Notes: a model not told the origin generated them from the sequence alone. A stretch of 64,000 bases of DNA from a bacterium (GCA_963662285.2 CAXXMV010000003.1:64001-128000); one strand, 5' to 3'; positions 22,716-28,777 are shown, numbered from the stretch's first letter. A program made the numbers and translations.

Positions 22716-24023
22716 TTATATAGCATAGAAAGCCGGTTTCTTACGATAGGGCGCATTACTGCGGTGCAGCAGCAGCCACAGCCAAATTATGCTGATGAAC
22801 ATCAGGACTGCGAAGAAACTGATTCCCATAGTATTAATAATCATTACCATTTTATTATTGCCTAAACGGGAGTACTTGAAAAAAAACATTGGCCAAAAAC
22901 CAAGCACAACAAACATAAGGTTGGTGAAAATCAGGGATATCATTGTGTTCCATCTCAAGTAAAAGACCGACGCGCCTAGAAAAATGGCGACGCAAACCTC
23001 ATAGCAGAGCATAAATATCTTGAGATCAAAGTAGGAACATGCCGCTATCGGGAAAAAGAGCATAAAAGGCAGCAGGATGCAGTAAACCGAAAGTCGCGTG
23101 CGTGTAATGGGCAGGTTTGAGAACACGCGCAGCGCAACATAAAAATCCCGGGATATTCTTGCCAGTATTAAAACTGTGATAAGAAGAGACGCCAGCAATA
23201 TCATTTCAATTATGGTATTGTTATTGGAAAATAATTCTGCAATAACGTATACGCCAAAATTCAATAATATCAACAATAAAGAGCCAATAATGATGGATAA
23301 CACCGGTCTGGCCAAAAGCGCATCCCACCAACTAATCGAAGTATCTTGATCCTTCAAATCCCGGATACGACCAGTATCTTTTTCAGGTACTTGATCTTCC
23401 GGCATCTTGCGTTCTGACATCTTATCCAGAAACCGCGGCGCAAACCAAAATCCCCATGTTGTTAATAGCACAGACGCGCTGACCACCAGCATCTTTACAT
23501 TAAAACTGCTGTTCCACAGGTAAGCCAGGTAGCCGCAGACTATACAAAATCCAACAAACAATAAGCCATAAATAAATTCTGTTATTATTCCGGATTGTTT
23601 TTGATAAATGAAAGCTAAGTATATCGACCAGCTATTAGTTAAAAGCAGTGAGATCAAGAGAAAGGGCGCCAAATCCCAATAACTATACATTGCCGGAACA
23701 ACGTAATCACATGCAATTATTCCAGTGATCATTGTGACGAATCCTATGATTATTGGACTTATGACTGCTTCGAACCATAATGTCCTCGAAAGCGCCTCTC
23801 TTTTAACTGGTAGTGACTGAGCTGTCCTTCGTATATCGAGCCGGTGATAATCCAGCGTAAAATACCACCCCATTATAAAAAGTGCGATATATGAAAAAAT
23901 GATCAGCATATAGAAATCTTCATTTGAAGCCGAATAAGCGGCTAAACAGACGTAACATGGGATTACAAGACCAAATCCCGGAAGATAACGGCGCATGTAA
24001 TCTGCTAATAATCGCATATCCAT
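22716..24023 (-). CDS. Putative ABC exporter permease (two ABC-2-like halves)
   Basis: About 12 TM helices with two SLPVKRE/NLPITRT motifs, directly downstream of an ABC ATPase. Confidence 0.75.
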   Translation of the reverse strand: MDMRLLADYMRRYLPGFGLVIPCYVCLAAYSASNEDFYMLIIFSYIALFIMGWYFTLDYHRLDIRRTAQSLPVKREALSRTLWFEAVISPIIIGFVTMITGIIACDYVVPAMYSYWDLAPFLLISLLLTNSWSIYLAFIYQKQSGIITEFIYGLLFVGFCIVCGYLAYLWNSSFNVKMLVVSASVLLTTWGFWFAPRFLDKMSERKMPEDQVPEKDTGRIRDLKDQDTSISWWDALLARPVLSIIIGSLLLILLNFGVYVIAELFSNNNTIIEMILLASLLITVLILARISRDFYVALRVFSNLPITRTRLSVYCILLPFMLFFPIAACSYFDLKIFMLCYEVCVAIFLGASVFYLRWNTMISLIFTNLMFVVLGFWPMFFFKYSRLGNNKMVMIINTMGISFFAVLMFISIIWLWLLLHRSNAPYRKKPAFYAI

Positions 24024-24024
24024 T

Positions 24025-24903
24025 TTAGGCCTCCTTGGCTAAGGTCAGAGCGATGAATAACTCTTCCAAAGTCACGGGTGATTCAGAAATTTCCCGCGCT
24101 CCCATTGATTTAAGGCGGCTTTGGGCGTCGCTTTGCAGATCGATCAAGGCGCGCCAGCGGTTATTTGAATGCTCTTGTGGATAGACGCCATTGGTCTGTT
24201 CCAGCAGGCCGTTGTCATAGATGCAGTCAATCATGCAGAAGCGTTCCACTATATCTGAAGTCGGTCCTTCCAGCAGCATTTTGCCGTTTTTGATCATACC
24301 GATGTGATCGGTGAAACGTTCAATATCAGTCAGGCCGTGGGAAGAGATCAATACGGTTCGCTCTTCGTTTTGCACCGCGGCCAGTAGTTCGGTGAATATC
24401 TGCTTTTTGGATACTGCATCCACCCCTATCACCGGCTCATCTAGTAACAATAAATCAGGTTTATGTGATAAAGCGAGGATAACCGCCAGTTTGACTTTTG
24501 ATCCAAACGACATGGTACCGATCTTATCGTTCCAGCCGATGTTCATTTTTTCCATCAGTTCAACGCAATAGTCTTGATCCCAACTGGGATAGTATGGGCG
24601 GATGAAATGAATCAGCCTTTTGACCTTCTTCCAGGCGCCGAAAGATAGGTCGGGGCTGACATAGCCAATCCGGGCTTTTATGGCCGCTTCATTCTTGTCG
24701 TTATCAAGATCGAACACCTGAATGCTTCCATTATCTTTGCGTCCCATATTCATAATGAGATCGATAGTGGTTGTTTTTCCCGCCGCATTGGGGCCGATTA
24801 ATCCATAGATAGCCCCCTTGGGAACTGTTAAATCAATTGGACCGAGTTTGAAGCATTTGAAGGATTTTTCTAAATTACGTATTTCTATAGCATTAGCAGT
24901 CAT
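24025..24903 (-). CDS. ABC transporter ATP-binding protein (YtrB-like)
   Basis: Walker A GPNAAGKTT, MSFG signature, LLLLDEP and ISSH. Start placed at MTANAIEI (24903) after GGAGG. Confidence 0.92.
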   Translation of the reverse strand: MTANAIEIRNLEKSFKCFKLGPIDLTVPKGAIYGLIGPNAAGKTTTIDLIMNMGRKDNGSIQVFDLDNDKNEAAIKARIGYVSPDLSFGAWKKVKRLIHFIRPYYPSWDQDYCVELMEKMNIGWNDKIGTMSFGSKVKLAVILALSHKPDLLLLDEPVIGVDAVSKKQIFTELLAAVQNEERTVLISSHGLTDIERFTDHIGMIKNGKMLLEGPTSDIVERFCMIDCIYDNGLLEQTNGVYPQEHSNNRWRALIDLQSDAQSRLKSMGAREISESPVTLEELFIALTLAKEA

Positions 24904-25060
24904 TTTCTTTTTCCTCCATCTTTTCACGGATCAACCGCCGGGTCATTTCTAATATCTCGCATTCGCTCATGCCGGTTGCGGAGGCCTGATGCACCGCTTG
25001 CCGGATCATATAAAGATAAGTTGGATCAGGTTTTAACGCTTTAAGCTCTGCGTTATTCAT
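24893..25060 (-). CDS. 55-aa small protein paralogous to the C-terminal helices of the upstream GntR/YtrA regulator
   Basis: MNNAELKALKPDPTYLYMIRQAVHQASATGMSECEILEMTRRLIREKMEEKENDC. AAAGGAGG RBS, TAATG overlap with the gntR stop, and its 3' end overlaps the ATPase start. 17/26 identity to the GntR C-terminus. Confidence 0.8.
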   Translation of the reverse strand: MNNAELKALKPDPTYLYMIRQAVHQASATGMSECEILEMTRRLIREKMEEKENDC

Positions 25061-25473
25061 TATTTTGATCCTCCTTTAGCCTGGCGGATGATGCGGCGCG
25101 TCATGTCCAGTATTTCATCTTCACTCATACCCGCTTCGGCGGCTTCGGAGATTGCCTGCCGCATGAGTTTCTCAGCTTGTATACGTTTGGCTTCACGGTT
25201 GCGATCAGCGCCTTGTTCGGAGACGAATGTTCCCAGACCTTGTTTACGATAAATGATTCCATCATGTTCCAGTTCTTCATAAGCGCGTTTGACTGTGATA
25301 AGGCTGACGGTCAAATCTTCGGCCAGGTTGCGGAAGGATGGTAAGGATTGTCCCGGCGCTAATCGACCTTCACTGATTTCACGTTTAACGCCATCCACGA
25401 TCTGTTGATAAAGCGGCCCCGGCGCGGCAGGCGAGATCGGTGGTATGATTAGGTTTTTGATTGATGAATCCAT
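25060..25473 (-). CDS. GntR family, YtrA-subfamily transcriptional regulator
   Basis: PLYQQIVDGVK...GQSLPSFRNLAEDLTVSLITVKRAYEELE...QGLGTFV. AAGGAGG RBS before ATGATG (25476/25473). Confidence 0.93.
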   Translation of the reverse strand: MDSSIKNLIIPPISPAAPGPLYQQIVDGVKREISEGRLAPGQSLPSFRNLAEDLTVSLITVKRAYEELEHDGIIYRKQGLGTFVSEQGADRNREAKRIQAEKLMRQAISEAAEAGMSEDEILDMTRRIIRQAKGGSK

Positions 25474-25560
25474 CATTACCTCCTTGGTCCTAAAAACAGC
25501 GTTTAATTTTGACAATGTAAAAAAGAGTCATTTTCAATCAGTTTGATAAGAGAAAATTAT

Positions 25561-25760
25561 CAACCCTCACCTAGACTCTCCTAATCCAGTAGGGGCAATC
25601 CTTCATGGTTGCCCGATGTGAAATACCCGTTGTTGAAATGTAACACCCAAACGTAAGGTCAACATGGGTGCCAAGGGTAGTGTACTTTCTACCCTTGAAA
25701 GCCACTCACGATTAAACAAACAGGGTGGGCTAAAAGCGAAGTGTAGTCCACCAAAACCCA
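25561..25760. repeat. Composite REP cluster in the gntR leader (families C, B, D, A)
   Basis: CCCTCACCTAGACTCTCC, GTAGGGGCAATCCTTCATGGTTGCCCG (25589-25615), GGGTGCCAAGGGTAG...CTACCCTTGA (25666-25698) and AGGGTGGGCTAAAAGCGAAGTGTAGTCCACC (25722-25752). Confidence 0.75.
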
Positions 25761-25813
25761 CCCAAGCTTAGGATCAGCGCCTCACTGAACCATAAGAAGA
25801 CTACTTTATGTTT

Positions 25814-25850
25814 TACTGTATATAATAAGCATATACAGTATGCGTGTCAA
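25814..25850 (-). promoter_or_regulatory. sigma70 promoter with overlapping YtrA-type operator
   Basis: Perfect inverted repeat TACTGTATAT-7 bp-ATATACAGTA (25814-25840) overlapping minus-strand TTGACA (25850-25845)-17 bp-TATTAT (25827-25822). Confidence 0.8.
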
Positions 25851-25948
25851 TGTTTTTTTGACTTTTTTTTGCCGATATACACAAGTGTTCACTTGTGGCA
25901 CAGAACTTGCACTAATACGTTTCCAACCATTTCAAAGGAGAAAAAATC

Positions 25949-26314
25949 ATGAACACCATTACTGCCAACGAATATGAACAAAGCGTTTCCCAGGTATTTG
26001 AGCATTGCATCACAAAAATCGCTGCGGTTCTGAAGAAAAACTTTAATCCCACTGAATCAAAATCGATCATGCTATTTCGATTATTCTGTATGTCAATCAA
26101 AACCCGAAACTCTTGGATAAAAAGTACGACCAGCGCCAAAAATAAAAATAATCAAAATCCCAAGAGTTCTGCCATGCCAATCAACCAAAATAAAGATAAA
26201 AACATCGATCTTCAAAAGGTTCTATCTTTTGATATCCCCCAAAAGAATGGCGCAGAGTACCAACATCCCATAAAACCGGAGCACATGAAGAGCGGATTGC
26301 TTATGAAAAGGTAA
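25949..26314 (+). CDS. Hypothetical protein
   Basis: 121 aa, strong AAAGGAG RBS, helical N-half and low-complexity K/N-rich C-half. Confidence 0.55.
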   Translation: MNTITANEYEQSVSQVFEHCITKIAAVLKKNFNPTESKSIMLFRLFCMSIKTRNSWIKSTTSAKNKNNQNPKSSAMPINQNKDKNIDLQKVLSFDIPQKNGAEYQHPIKPEHMKSGLLMKR

Positions 26315-26559: not shown

Positions 26560-26650
26560 GGGGAAAATCATAGATCGGGGAACATCATAGAATGGGGAAC
26601 ATCAAAAAGGGGAGCATCAAAAAGGGGAGCATCGGCTTCTAGCCGGTGTG
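26560..26650 (+). repeat. Tandem array of about 15-17-bp GGGGAGCATCAAAAA-like units ending in a GGAG-type REP (family E)
   Basis: Four progressively degenerate units precede GGAGCATCGGCTTCTAGCCGGTG. Confidence 0.85.
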
Positions 26651-26721
26651 TCAAATAGAATAGAATAAGCCCCATTACGCATAATCATTTCCATAGAGAT
26701 AGGGGGATGAAAAATGAATAA

Positions 26722-26933
26722 CCGATTTGTTTTGTGATGCCGGATCACGTGCACATCATCCTTACGTTATTGGAAATTCCAAACCTTGGATATCATTCGA
26801 TCACAACAATACTTCATAGCATTAAAAGTTATTCATCAATATAAGCAAACCGGTTAGGAAGGGATTGGATGAAATCGTAGAAGAGTATCCTTTTTTGTGT
26901 GAAGAGAATCGACGGGATTGGCACACCGGCTAG
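26722..26933 (+). pseudogene. Decayed REP-associated tyrosine transposase (RAYT / TnpA-REP)
   Basis: 26722-26844 reads PICFVMPDHVHIILTLLEIPNLGYHSITTILHSIKSYSSI* (HUH motif MPDHVH). Another frame, 26847-26933, reads KPVRKGLDEIVEEYPFL..., the NPVRxGL..eYpw C-terminal motif. Confidence 0.8.
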
Positions 26934-27006
26934 AAGCCGATGCTCCCCTTTTTGATGCTCCCCTTTTTGATGCTCCCCTTTTTGATGCTTCCCTTTTTGA
27001 TGCTCT
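26922..27006 (-). repeat. Inverted copy of the GGAG-REP plus four 15-bp tandem units
   Basis: CACACCGGCTAGAAGCCGATGCTCCCC followed by TTTTTGATGCTCCCC repeats, the outer ones degenerate. Confidence 0.85.
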
Positions 27007-27294: not shown

Positions 27295-28113
27295 ATGAAA
27301 CGTAATACTGGGGTACTGACTGTATTGATTGCGTTATGCATGGTCGCAACCATGGTCAACGCGCAAACTGTTACTTCAATTGGAGAGATTAATCAGGTAG
27401 ATGATCAGGGTAATCCTGTGTTCGCAGGTTTGCAGACCACTGATAAATACACTATTGAAGGCGTAGCGGTTAACAGCACCGGCGCGTTTAATGGTATGAA
27501 TGATGATGGTTCAATGGCTACGGATTTCATCGTATTCGTACAGGATGAAACCGGTGGCATGCAGGTTTATTCCGGCGGCTGGTATGGCGGTGGAATGGCG
27601 CTTTATCCTGAGATAAAGCAGGGCGACCGGATTCGCGCTACTGGATTGACCGGGCATTTTGGCGGTAAGACCAATATGAACGACCGCCATAATCCTGACC
27701 AGAAATTTGAGATTACGGTGCTATCTTCCGGAGAAGAAATTAAACCTATCGCTATTGATAATCTGGCTGGCATAAATGATTTCGACCCAACCCGCGCAAC
27801 TGGCGGAGAGTATTACCAGGGACGTCTGGTTGAATTGAAAAACGTTGAGATCATTGAGGGCGAATGGCTGAATGGTTCCATGCTCACCGTTGCCGACGGG
27901 CAAGGGAATACATTTACTGTTGAATTGCGCCATGGCGCCAAAATCGCTGATTCCGCCCAACCGCAAGGTTTGCTGAATATCGTTGGAGTATTTGACCAGG
28001 AAGATCCCGAAGCGCCTTTTATGGAAGGTTATCTTCTCTGGCCGCGCTCCATCACAGATTTCACAGCTGCTGATGGTTCAAGCCAAGTCGATGAGTGGAA
28101 TCTTTACAAATAA
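27295..28113 (+). CDS. Secreted protein with two probable OB-fold-like domains and a C-terminal VDEWNLY motif
   Basis: Signal peptide ending VNA-Q, FVQDETGGMQVY, GDRIRATG, YQGRLVELKNV, NIVGVFDQ..LWPRS..DF. Confidence 0.75.
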   Translation: MKRNTGVLTVLIALCMVATMVNAQTVTSIGEINQVDDQGNPVFAGLQTTDKYTIEGVAVNSTGAFNGMNDDGSMATDFIVFVQDETGGMQVYSGGWYGGGMALYPEIKQGDRIRATGLTGHFGGKTNMNDRHNPDQKFEITVLSSGEEIKPIAIDNLAGINDFDPTRATGGEYYQGRLVELKNVEIIEGEWLNGSMLTVADGQGNTFTVELRHGAKIADSAQPQGLLNIVGVFDQEDPEAPFMEGYLLWPRSITDFTAADGSSQVDEWNLYK

Positions 28114-28117
28114 TTGG

Positions 28118-28777
28118 ATGATAAACGATAAGAATGCCTTTACCTTAATTGAACTGCTGATCGTGGTAGCCATTATCGGTATTTTAGCTTCGATAGCGGT
28201 TCCAAACTTTCTCAACGCCATGACGCGCAGCAAAATCGCGGCGGCTCAGGCTCAGATCGAAGCCTGTACGGTTGCTTTAGAATCTTACCGTCTTGATCGA
28301 AACGGCCTTCCGCCGACGCGGTATTACTGTCTGGCCTGGGGCGAGGAAAAAGCCAAGAAGTACTTTGAACTACCGTGGGAACTTACAACGCCAACGGCAT
28401 ATCTGAGTGACAGGCCGCTTGATCCGTTTAATACATTTCCGGGAGCATCCAGCGATGCTCCCGGACAAACTATTAAGTACCGTTCTCCCGGATTCGGTTA
28501 TTTCAACGATATGCCGACCGAAGAAGGCATGTGGATTCCAAAATCGTTTCCATTTGATGACGGCGACTATGTTTTTTACAACAACGCTTCGTTAGAGCAT
28601 CCAGCAAAAGATAGCCCGGTGCAGTATGGATTATGGAGCGCCGGTCCCATACCCAAAGTAGAAATTGGCATGCACACTTACGAACCGGTTCCTTCGCATA
28701 CATGGTACGACTCGACCAATGGAACCAGAAGTTCTGGCATAATCGTAAAATTAAGTTCAGGACAACATTCCCCATGA
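28118..28777 (+). CDS. Type IV pilin / GspG-like pseudopilin with prepilin N-terminal cleavage motif
   Basis: MINDKNA-FTLIELLIVVAIIGILASIAVPNF, then ALESYRLD, LTTPTAYLS..PLDPF, WSAGP and YDSTNGTRSSG. True start placed at ATG 28118. Confidence 0.9.
   Translation: MINDKNAFTLIELLIVVAIIGILASIAVPNFLNAMTRSKIAAAQAQIEACTVALESYRLDRNGLPPTRYYCLAWGEEKAKKYFELPWELTTPTAYLSDRPLDPFNTFPGASSDAPGQTIKYRSPGFGYFNDMPTEEGMWIPKSFPFDDGDYVFYNNASLEHPAKDSPVQYGLWSAGPIPKVEIGMHTYEPVPSHTWYDSTNGTRSSGIIVKLSSGQHSP

Follow-up and report, generated by a model that had tools for sequence, protein, structure and literature searches.

Why should an operon that is headed by a transcriptional repressor carry, directly behind the repressor gene, a second copy of a part of that repressor? 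This question is raised by a locus in a 64,000-nucleotide (nt) stretch of bacterial DNA (GCA_963662285.2, CAXXMV010000003.1:64001-128000), hereafter the window, to which all coordinates refer unless a locus is named. A compact operon on the minus strand contains four open reading frames (ORFs) in the order gntR, an ORF for 55 amino acids (aa), the gene for an ATP-binding cassette (ABC) transporter ATPase and the gene for a 435-aa protein (Table 1). [quoted passage not shown] We find that the small ORF is very probably a genuine gene, and we discuss here what its product might do to the repressor.

The small ORF is interlocked with both of its neighbours. The gntR stop codon TAA (25060-25062) and the ATG of the small ORF (25058-25060) share one base in a TAATG junction, and a Shine-Dalgarno sequence for the small ORF, AAAGGAGG, is located within the gntR tail. 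At the other end, the small ORF carries the GGAGG of the ATPase gene as well as its ATG, resulting in an overlap of 11 nt up to the small-ORF TAA at 24893-24895. These junctions had been described in an original prediction made from the sequence, and each of them is confirmed. A single BLASTP comparison of the peptide with GntR aligns residues 18-46 with residues 104-132 without gaps (17 of 29 identical, 25 of 29 positive, E 5e-11), thereby extending the 17 identities in 26 residues reported before. Two of these 17 identical residues are Met; the other 15 use a different codon in ten cases and the same codon in five, and this recount agrees with the earlier one. On the DNA level, the peptide and the GntR copy are identical at 54 of 87 positions, with a proportion of synonymous differences of 0.88 and of non-synonymous differences of 0.24. 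Because ten of the 15 codons differ and synonymous sites have changed so much more than non-synonymous ones, the duplication is old and the protein sequence has been retained.

The peptide lacks the part of the repressor that would contact DNA. With 55 residues it is too short for a DNA-binding domain, and a Pfam scan at E<=1 gave no GntR hit for it. Pfam contains a SinI model, and the same scan returned one chance-level hit, to an unrelated family; hence, the peptide does not fall into the SinI/SinR helical-hook family. The AlphaFold2 (AF2) model of GntR has helices at 89-114 and 119-133 (predicted local distance difference test, pLDDT, 87.8), while that of the peptide (pLDDT 78.6) shows a hairpin, helices 13-28 and 33-53, whose first 12 residues are poorly defined. 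In these models, the peptide equals the distal half of GntR helix 4, the A/T-G-M-S loop and helix 5. The earlier description as a copy of the C-terminal helices of the repressor without the DNA-binding domain is therefore in line with BLASTP, the Pfam scan and the AF2 models. Searches of structure collections with the peptide added little: Foldseek of the model against the PDB returned nothing at E<=0.001, the peptide profile had a marginal match alone in the PDB, to designed helical repeat proteins (E 0.0027), and the ESM Atlas had no usable match.

Conservation argues that the small ORF is selected as a protein. The phylum was represented by 35 species genomes, including that of the window (G000), which were searched with profiles. 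Nine of the 35 encode a GntR with this type of tail, and in three of the nine a second match lies in a separate small frame just downstream. These three genomes, G000, G010 and G023, belong to two families of one order, and the orthologs occupy the same place between the repressor and ATPase genes (Table 1). In a 29-codon core, compared after anchoring on an invariant Gly-Met, the three orthologs are 14-16/29 identical to one another, and the pairwise matches at codon positions 1/2/3 are 20/22/13, 17/24/10 and 18/22/9 of 29. The non-synonymous difference in the core amounts to 0.27-0.29 and the synonymous difference to 0.62-0.91; the homologous part of GntR is similar in this respect, at 0.19-0.33. 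The reading frame of the hairpin is in the -1 frame relative to gntR in all three genomes, and a programmed -1 frameshift fusing it to GntR was considered and rejected: by reading of the sequence the junctions differ, there is no common slippery heptamer, and each of the three genomes has a start codon and a Shine-Dalgarno site of its own.

Proteins of this kind are also found in public collections, where the 55-aa protein is recorded as a called gene product (P0001). When a collection of 5.8 billion proteins was searched with the single peptide sequence, the window's own protein was the only match. A profile of the three peptides matched 12 of 1.84 billion representative proteins at E<=0.001; eight of the 12 have 41-63 aa, and the other four comprise a GntR fragment of 72 aa, a protein of 111 aa and two long proteins that the profile matches repeatedly. 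Extended to ten sequences and run against the 5.8 billion proteins, the profile yielded 15 clusters whose proteins have 41-63 aa; Pfam domains are absent from all 15, and two bear the name 'hypothetical protein'. The eight clusters that were looked up hold 1-3 sequences each, on 1-8 contigs. The family alignment has the motif h-R-x-A-h-x-x-A-x-x-[AT]-G-M-x-E-x-E-I-h-x-h-x-[RQ]-[RQ]-h-I. In most of these proteins the tail has G-G or G-A shortly ahead of the C-terminus, which would suit a Shine-Dalgarno site of a closely spaced next gene, and several end in N/H-D, which would suit an overlapping ATG-AC start. Among the larger proteins, P0006 (1561 aa) has 7 separate stretches that match the hairpin profile and P0013 (367 aa) has 5, and in P0011 (111 aa) the motif stands at the C-terminus behind an unrelated N-terminal part.

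One could still regard the ORF as what is left, without function and open by chance, of a tandem duplication of part of gntR. The patchy distribution and clean, repeated loss would suit such a remnant, and direct repeats left by a tandem duplication would ease deletions of this kind. We consider this extremely unlikely, since three genomes from two families retain the frame, start, Shine-Dalgarno sequence and overlaps, synonymous change has reached saturation at a non-synonymous change of ~0.28, third codon positions are the least conserved, and a motif is common to the 15 protein clusters. On these grounds, the earlier claim of a conserved coding ORF that is not due to chance stands. The original prediction had also named absence or disruption of the frame in relatives, together with a ratio of non-synonymous to synonymous change (dN/dS) near 1, as what would speak against it. 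In the orthologs the frame is intact and selection is seen; from the operons of most relatives, however, the ORF is missing.

The hairpin gene is rare and patchy, and it is not general to YtrA operons. Among the six other genomes of the phylum with this GntR, the ATPase gene directly follows in five (G017, G021, G033, G034, G031), and in G001 the operon (L027) is decayed: it lacks the ATPase gene together with most of the gene for the membrane protein, and the GntR tail has diverged. The GntR frame of G021 (L025:1249-1614) is open over 121 codons only and lacks the usual N-terminus, reflecting a frameshift or an assembly error. In 401 widely sampled genomes, a separate small frame was found in G000, G010 and G023 only, and scanning genome contigs with the three-peptide profile gave no further loci beyond the G010 and G023 contigs; a match in L036, antisense to an ORF of 714 aa, turned out to be spurious. 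When metagenomes were scanned with the GntR profile, 387 relatives were confirmed, of which the 80 best were analysed as loci. The peptide profile matched 76 of the 80, each time within the GntR tail, and a second hairpin frame was present in none. The GntR stop was contained in 77 of these loci and a downstream ATPase gene in 64, with a gap between the two genes of -20 to +14 nt in 50 of the 64. Wider gaps were considered as sites for the hairpin, and the 11 largest were read without finding a hairpin paralog. A metagenome scan with the ten-peptide profile matched 465 pattern stretches, none of which was confirmed. The repressors of the peptide-less relatives are very similar (57-76% identity).

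Some of these intergenic regions have a content of their own. In three of the 11 largest gaps, other, hydrophobic ORFs, small or large and membrane-protein-like, lie between the GntR and ATPase genes (L087:2899-3258, L099:2128-2425 and L045:794-2184). In L052, L063, L112 and L114, gaps of 177-186 nt after the GntR stop hold a common spacer with a short tandem DNA repeat, one frame of which reads C-P-S-C-P-S, and this spacer precedes an ATPase gene with an apparent N-terminal extension.

How did the small gene arise? In a tree of the ATPases with 53 rows, the six closest operons come together in one clade (support 98/85), which branches as G023, (G021, G010), (G000, (L038, G017)). On this tree, a single gain plus two losses does as well as three separate gains, since either needs three changes. 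A tree of ten peptides and 35 GntR tails (53 columns) places nine of the ten peptides in one group, and no peptide neighbours the GntR of its own genome. Furthermore, the G000 and G010 peptides have in common an N-terminal stretch, L-K-x-x-K-P-x-D-P, that is missing from GntR. Three independent duplications from the local gntR are contradicted by the lack of peptide-GntR pairs and by this stretch. Since the peptides group, weakly, apart from the GntR tails and two of them have the extra stretch in common, the sequences speak for a single old tandem duplication of the 3' end of gntR and for losses thereafter. The duplicated piece would comprise the distal half of helix 4, the loop and helix 5, together with the tail in which the ribosome-binding site of the next gene lies. 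This site is encoded by the K-G-G-S-K of the GntR tail, so that the duplicate would have been coupled on both sides from the start.

The repressor itself belongs, by sequence, to the YtrA subfamily: it has a winged helix-turn-helix, a short two-helix C-terminal domain (~50 residues), and a long palindrome and transporter genes nearby. The definition of the YtrA C-terminal domain used for this assignment was taken from PMC6746942. Pfam GntR (PF00392) matches residues 22-85, the winged helix-turn-helix at the N-terminus, with 65 bits against a cut-off of 27, and the Pfam scan found no second domain in GntR. A profile of the nine GntR proteins matches the solved YtrA-type proteins 4r1h, 3neu, 4ham, 6sbs, 3by6, 3ic7 and 2du9, and for 4r1h and 3neu the alignment spans the C-terminal helices.

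The operator-like palindrome upstream of gntR, TACTGTATAT-N7-ATATACAGTA, had been noted in the original prediction and is real. Palindromes of the type CTGTATAT-N7-ATATACAG lie upstream of the homologous GntR gene in 7/11 loci examined. The palindrome of the window is the sole perfect site in the 7.29-Mb genome, and near-matches with two mismatches (2 sites) are level with a control pattern (2 sites). The uniqueness of the site suggests that the repressor is most likely a dedicated autoregulator of this single operon. A promoter-like site overlaps the palindrome; promoter-like sites in the region overall are not above chance (10 found, 10.6 expected). Within gntR, the promoter scan of the region found none, and therefore the peptide would be made from the repressor's own transcript. 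Between the operator and gntR lies a long leader: the distance from the palindrome to the GntR start is 337 nt, versus 7-184 nt in relatives. Pieces of the leader (25500-25810) match 80 places in the genome, some of them regularly spaced tandem arrays, for example with a period of 89 bp on contig 8 and of 133 bp on contig 1. Rfam gave no match in 24800-26100.

In YtrA-type regulators, the two C-terminal helices are a dimerisation module, and the domain is thought to be too small for a ligand pocket (PMC6746942), in agreement with what the original prediction had assumed. [quoted passage not shown] It seems conceivable, and we rate this slightly below even odds as a whole, that the small gene encodes a selected, duplicated hairpin that pairs with the repressor and thereby weakens repression. 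The peptide would be translated by coupling from the autoregulated mRNA that it has in common with the repressor, would pair with the dimerisation hairpin of the repressor much like SinI with SinR, and the heteromers would bind the single palindromic operator less well. Onset of operon expression would then lead to a further loss of repression, making the peptide a titration or positive-feedback element. Because its expression is coupled with that of the repressor, the peptide would be such an element and not a signal-driven switch. For binding to the repressor, taken by itself, we put the chances at about equal. The direction of the effect, anti-repression, is preferred by analogy with SinI/SinR and TrlR/TraR; the bistable induction put forward in the original prediction is likewise conjectural.

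The pairing had been proposed earlier, and a complex prediction was run with full-length GntR (70-row alignment), the peptide (10-row alignment) and three controls. The score of the GntR-peptide pair was 0.41, that of the best control 0.00, and the verdict of the method was 'weak support'. Among solved complexes, 58 of 80 reach the mark used, and among mismatched pairs 2 of 110; with scores <=0.60, just 7 of the 80 solved complexes do so, as do both passing mismatches. Runs agreed in at least 86% of the contacts, and the partner pLDDT was at least 66. The pass may stem from resemblance to solved YtrA homodimers.

Several observations weigh against pairing with the repressor as a selected anti-repression device. 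By the method's own account, a weak pass in complex prediction is wrong more often than it is right, except where the guess had been a likely one to begin with. The peptide gene is lost or was never present in five of the eight intact homologous operons of the phylum, indicating that it is dispensable, and it is absent from all 64 metagenomic relatives with an ATPase gene downstream. Within the six-operon ATPase clade, peptide-bearing and peptide-less operons are interleaved, requiring three changes. The group of peptides is weakly supported (63/88), occurs as a single group in 8% of the bootstrap trees and leaves P0009 outside. Genomic context was seen for three of the 15 clusters. Finally, the small gene has no promoter of its own, unlike sinI, and would be made in a roughly fixed ratio to the repressor. 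From this ratio it follows that a simple signal-controlled anti-repressor is not possible.

Coupled, near-fixed-ratio expression from one mRNA would equally suit a stoichiometric subunit, and this leads to the opposite direction of action. As a co-repressor, the hairpin would sit on the dimerisation hairpins as a cap or a bridge, a 2:2 complex being one example, so that the form that binds DNA is stabilised or its spacing altered. Helix 5, for which one solved YtrA structure shows flexibility and poor order (PMC6746942), would leave room for such a role, and the weak complex score against controls at zero is silent on direction. However, the five phylum operons and 64 metagenomic relatives do without the peptide despite repressors of such high identity, and therefore the peptide is not required for repression as such. 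We regard a co-repressor as improbable.

The position of the gene directs attention to the transporter as well. The hairpin could bind the ATPase or the 435-aa membrane protein, either as an accessory or regulatory subunit or as a shuttle that reports transporter activity to a repressor without a pocket. In all three genomes, the small gene overlaps the start of the ATPase gene; this overlap is equally explained by tandem duplication. The surface motif E-x-E-I-h-x-h-T-R-R-h-I-R is kept in the peptide and in the repressor tail, which would fit a third partner common to both, and the related operons L087, L099 and L045 have different, membrane-protein-like small ORFs at the same position. As of a paper from 2019, no natural ligand was known for YtrA regulators (PMC6746942). 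Homology, in turn, indicates the repressor hairpin as the natural partner, and we judge a transporter partner unlikely. In a combined form, to which we give a distinctly low probability, the transporter would hold the hairpin during one state of the ATPase cycle and let it go during another, and the free hairpin would then pry the repressor dimer apart as a mimic of its hairpin. If this relay is true, a YtrA repressor without a ligand would follow how active its own transporter is, via a copy of its own dimerisation module.

The identity of the neighbouring genes bears on yet another role, as cargo and inducer. The best NCBIfam match of the repressor is PmtR (93.9 bits) and that of the ATPase is PmtA (189.9 bits), proteins of the phenol-soluble modulin export system. 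By analogy, the peptide might be a leaderless helical peptide that is exported by the adjacent ABC transporter and releases the repressor upon accumulation, as small helical peptides release PmtR from its operator (PMC5080381). However, both scores are far below the NCBIfam equivalog cut-offs of 200 and 350, respectively, the peptide, with 10 acidic and 8 basic residues among its 55, has a high charge and is hydrophilic, and the protein module to which it is paralogous is intracellular. Such a role is very unlikely. The 435-aa protein, the presumed membrane partner of the ATPase, matched no Pfam or NCBIfam family; an ORF homologous to it comes after the ATPase gene in L002, L003 and L004.

Table 1. 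Features of the operon in the window and of the orthologous small genes (pLDDT-scored models and sequence comparisons are described in the text).
Feature	Coordinates	Strand	Remarks
YtrA-type GntR repressor gene	25060..25476	-	138 aa, or 137 aa if the second ATG is used
55-aa protein, predicted helical hairpin, paralog of GntR residues 104-132	24893..25060	-	ATG start; BLASTP, codon comparison, AF2 model
Shine-Dalgarno AAAGGAGG of the small ORF	25070-25077	-	inside the gntR tail, 9 nt before the ATG
Shine-Dalgarno GGAGG of the ATPase gene	24913-24917	-	inside the small ORF, 9 nt upstream of the ATG (24901-24903)
ABC transporter ATP-binding protein, 292 aa	24025..24903	-	Pfam ABC_tran 74.6 bits; start placed by the N-termini of orthologs
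435-aa hydrophobic protein, presumed membrane partner of the ATPase	22716..24023	-	ORF; membrane nature judged by eye from the sequence
Operator-like palindrome TACTGTATAT-N7-ATATACAGTA	25814..25840	.	perfect 10-nt arms, 7-nt loop
Promoter-like site TTGACA-17 nt-TATTAT	25822..25850	-	11/12 positions matched, best in the region, overlaps the palindrome
Long 5' leader, operator to gntR, with short dispersed repeat modules	25477..25813	-	repeat matches in the genome
Ortholog in G010, 58 aa	L002:554-730	+	GTG start overlapping the GntR stop (GTGA), preceded by GGAAGGAG; end 20 nt inside the ATPase gene
Ortholog in G023, 49 aa	L003:1492-1641	-	ATGA start overlap after AAAGGAG; stop overlaps the ATPase GTG start

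Two further features were observed in the surroundings of the operon. Close to the operon, both G000 (window 27983-28777, plus strand) and G023 (L003:2487-3089, minus strand) encode a protein whose N-terminus is of the prepilin type (F-T-L-I-E-L-L-I-V-V-A-I-I-G-I-L-A). At 26591-26654 and 26918-26981, the window contains a pair of 64-nt inverted repeats, 95% complementary and made of 15-nt tandem units, which enclose 263 nt with a 40-codon open frame bearing the motif P-D-H-V-H-I-I-L. We take this frame to resemble a decayed IS200-like or REP-associated tyrosine transposase, which may be related to the dispersed repeats of the leader.

The closest parallel in design to a hairpin that pairs with its parent repressor is SinI/SinR of B. 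subtilis. SinI is close to the peptide in size, its two helices have homologs in the C-terminal oligomerisation helices of the repressor encoded next to it, and SinI and SinR hook into a heterodimer in which DNA binding is abolished (PMC3163267). The peptide likewise is homologous to the oligomerisation helices of its neighbouring repressor over the 29 aligned residues, with matching helices. However, the families are unrelated, the repressor here being a GntR winged helix and the peptide having no Pfam hit to the SinI/SinR family. The small gene described here is located downstream of the repressor gene and translationally coupled to it, its start overlapping the repressor stop in three genomes, whereas sinI is transcribed under Spo0A control from a signal-controlled promoter of its own. 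Binding of the peptide to its repressor is weakly predicted. The likeness to SinI is to be understood as an analogy of design and not as homology. TrlR of Agrobacterium tumefaciens is a truncated paralog without DNA-binding domain that forms inactive heterodimers with the full-length regulator TraR (PMC13043044). In contrast to our case, these are LuxR family proteins, an activator is antagonised, and TrlR retains the whole ligand-binding domain versus a 29-residue hairpin core here.

Other systems resemble the operon more than the peptide. PmtR of Staphylococcus aureus is a YtrA-type repressor that heads its own ABC-transporter operon and is freed from the operator by phenol-soluble modulins, which are small helical peptides; for effectors, an action on the C-terminal 'fishhook' has been proposed (PMC5080381). 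These modulins, however, are toxins encoded elsewhere and not repressor paralogs, and the repressor and ATPase of the window fall below the PmtR and PmtA cut-offs. YtrG, from the YtrA-controlled ABC-transporter operon ytrGABCDEF of B. subtilis, is also a small protein, described as monotopic and transmembrane; the peptide, in contrast, is a repressor paralog and has no hydrophobic segment that could form such a single transmembrane helix, its AF2 model consisting of two amphipathic helices. Id and LITTLE ZIPPER are examples of eukaryotic microProteins. Such microProteins are small, single-domain relatives of larger regulators that engage the interaction domain of the regulator (PMC9638782), although they are eukaryotic and unrelated in sequence to the peptide. 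The original prediction had drawn on truncated dimerisation-only proteins that act as dominant negatives in eukaryotes; such antagonists are not solely eukaryotic, as SinI/SinR (PMC3163267) and TrlR/TraR (PMC13043044) are bacterial. Its further remark that no bacterial YtrA system with such a component is known to have been described agrees with YtrA-centred literature searches: among the papers listed by these and by a broader search on bacterial microproteins, none reports a repressor-derived small protein in a YtrA operon. The design principle is already known from bacteria in other families, and its occurrence in a YtrA operon is new to the literature found.

YtrA-type repressors head many ABC-transporter operons, and their C-terminal domain is only a dimerisation hairpin (PMC6746942). 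The family described here is rare and occurs in uncultured bacteria, and the function that we propose for it is drawn from sequences and models. The locus would also be a clean example of the birth of a small-protein gene: when a gene's 3' end is duplicated, the ribosome-binding site in the tail is copied along with it, and therefore the new ORF would be coupled to both of its neighbours at once. If the pairing with the repressor is true, a hairpin copy without DNA-binding domain, encoded in the operon itself, would represent protein-level control of a YtrA repressor, and the SinI/TrlR principle of a truncated paralog as antagonist would be extended to the GntR superfamily, with the antagonist hard-wired in the autoregulated transcript.

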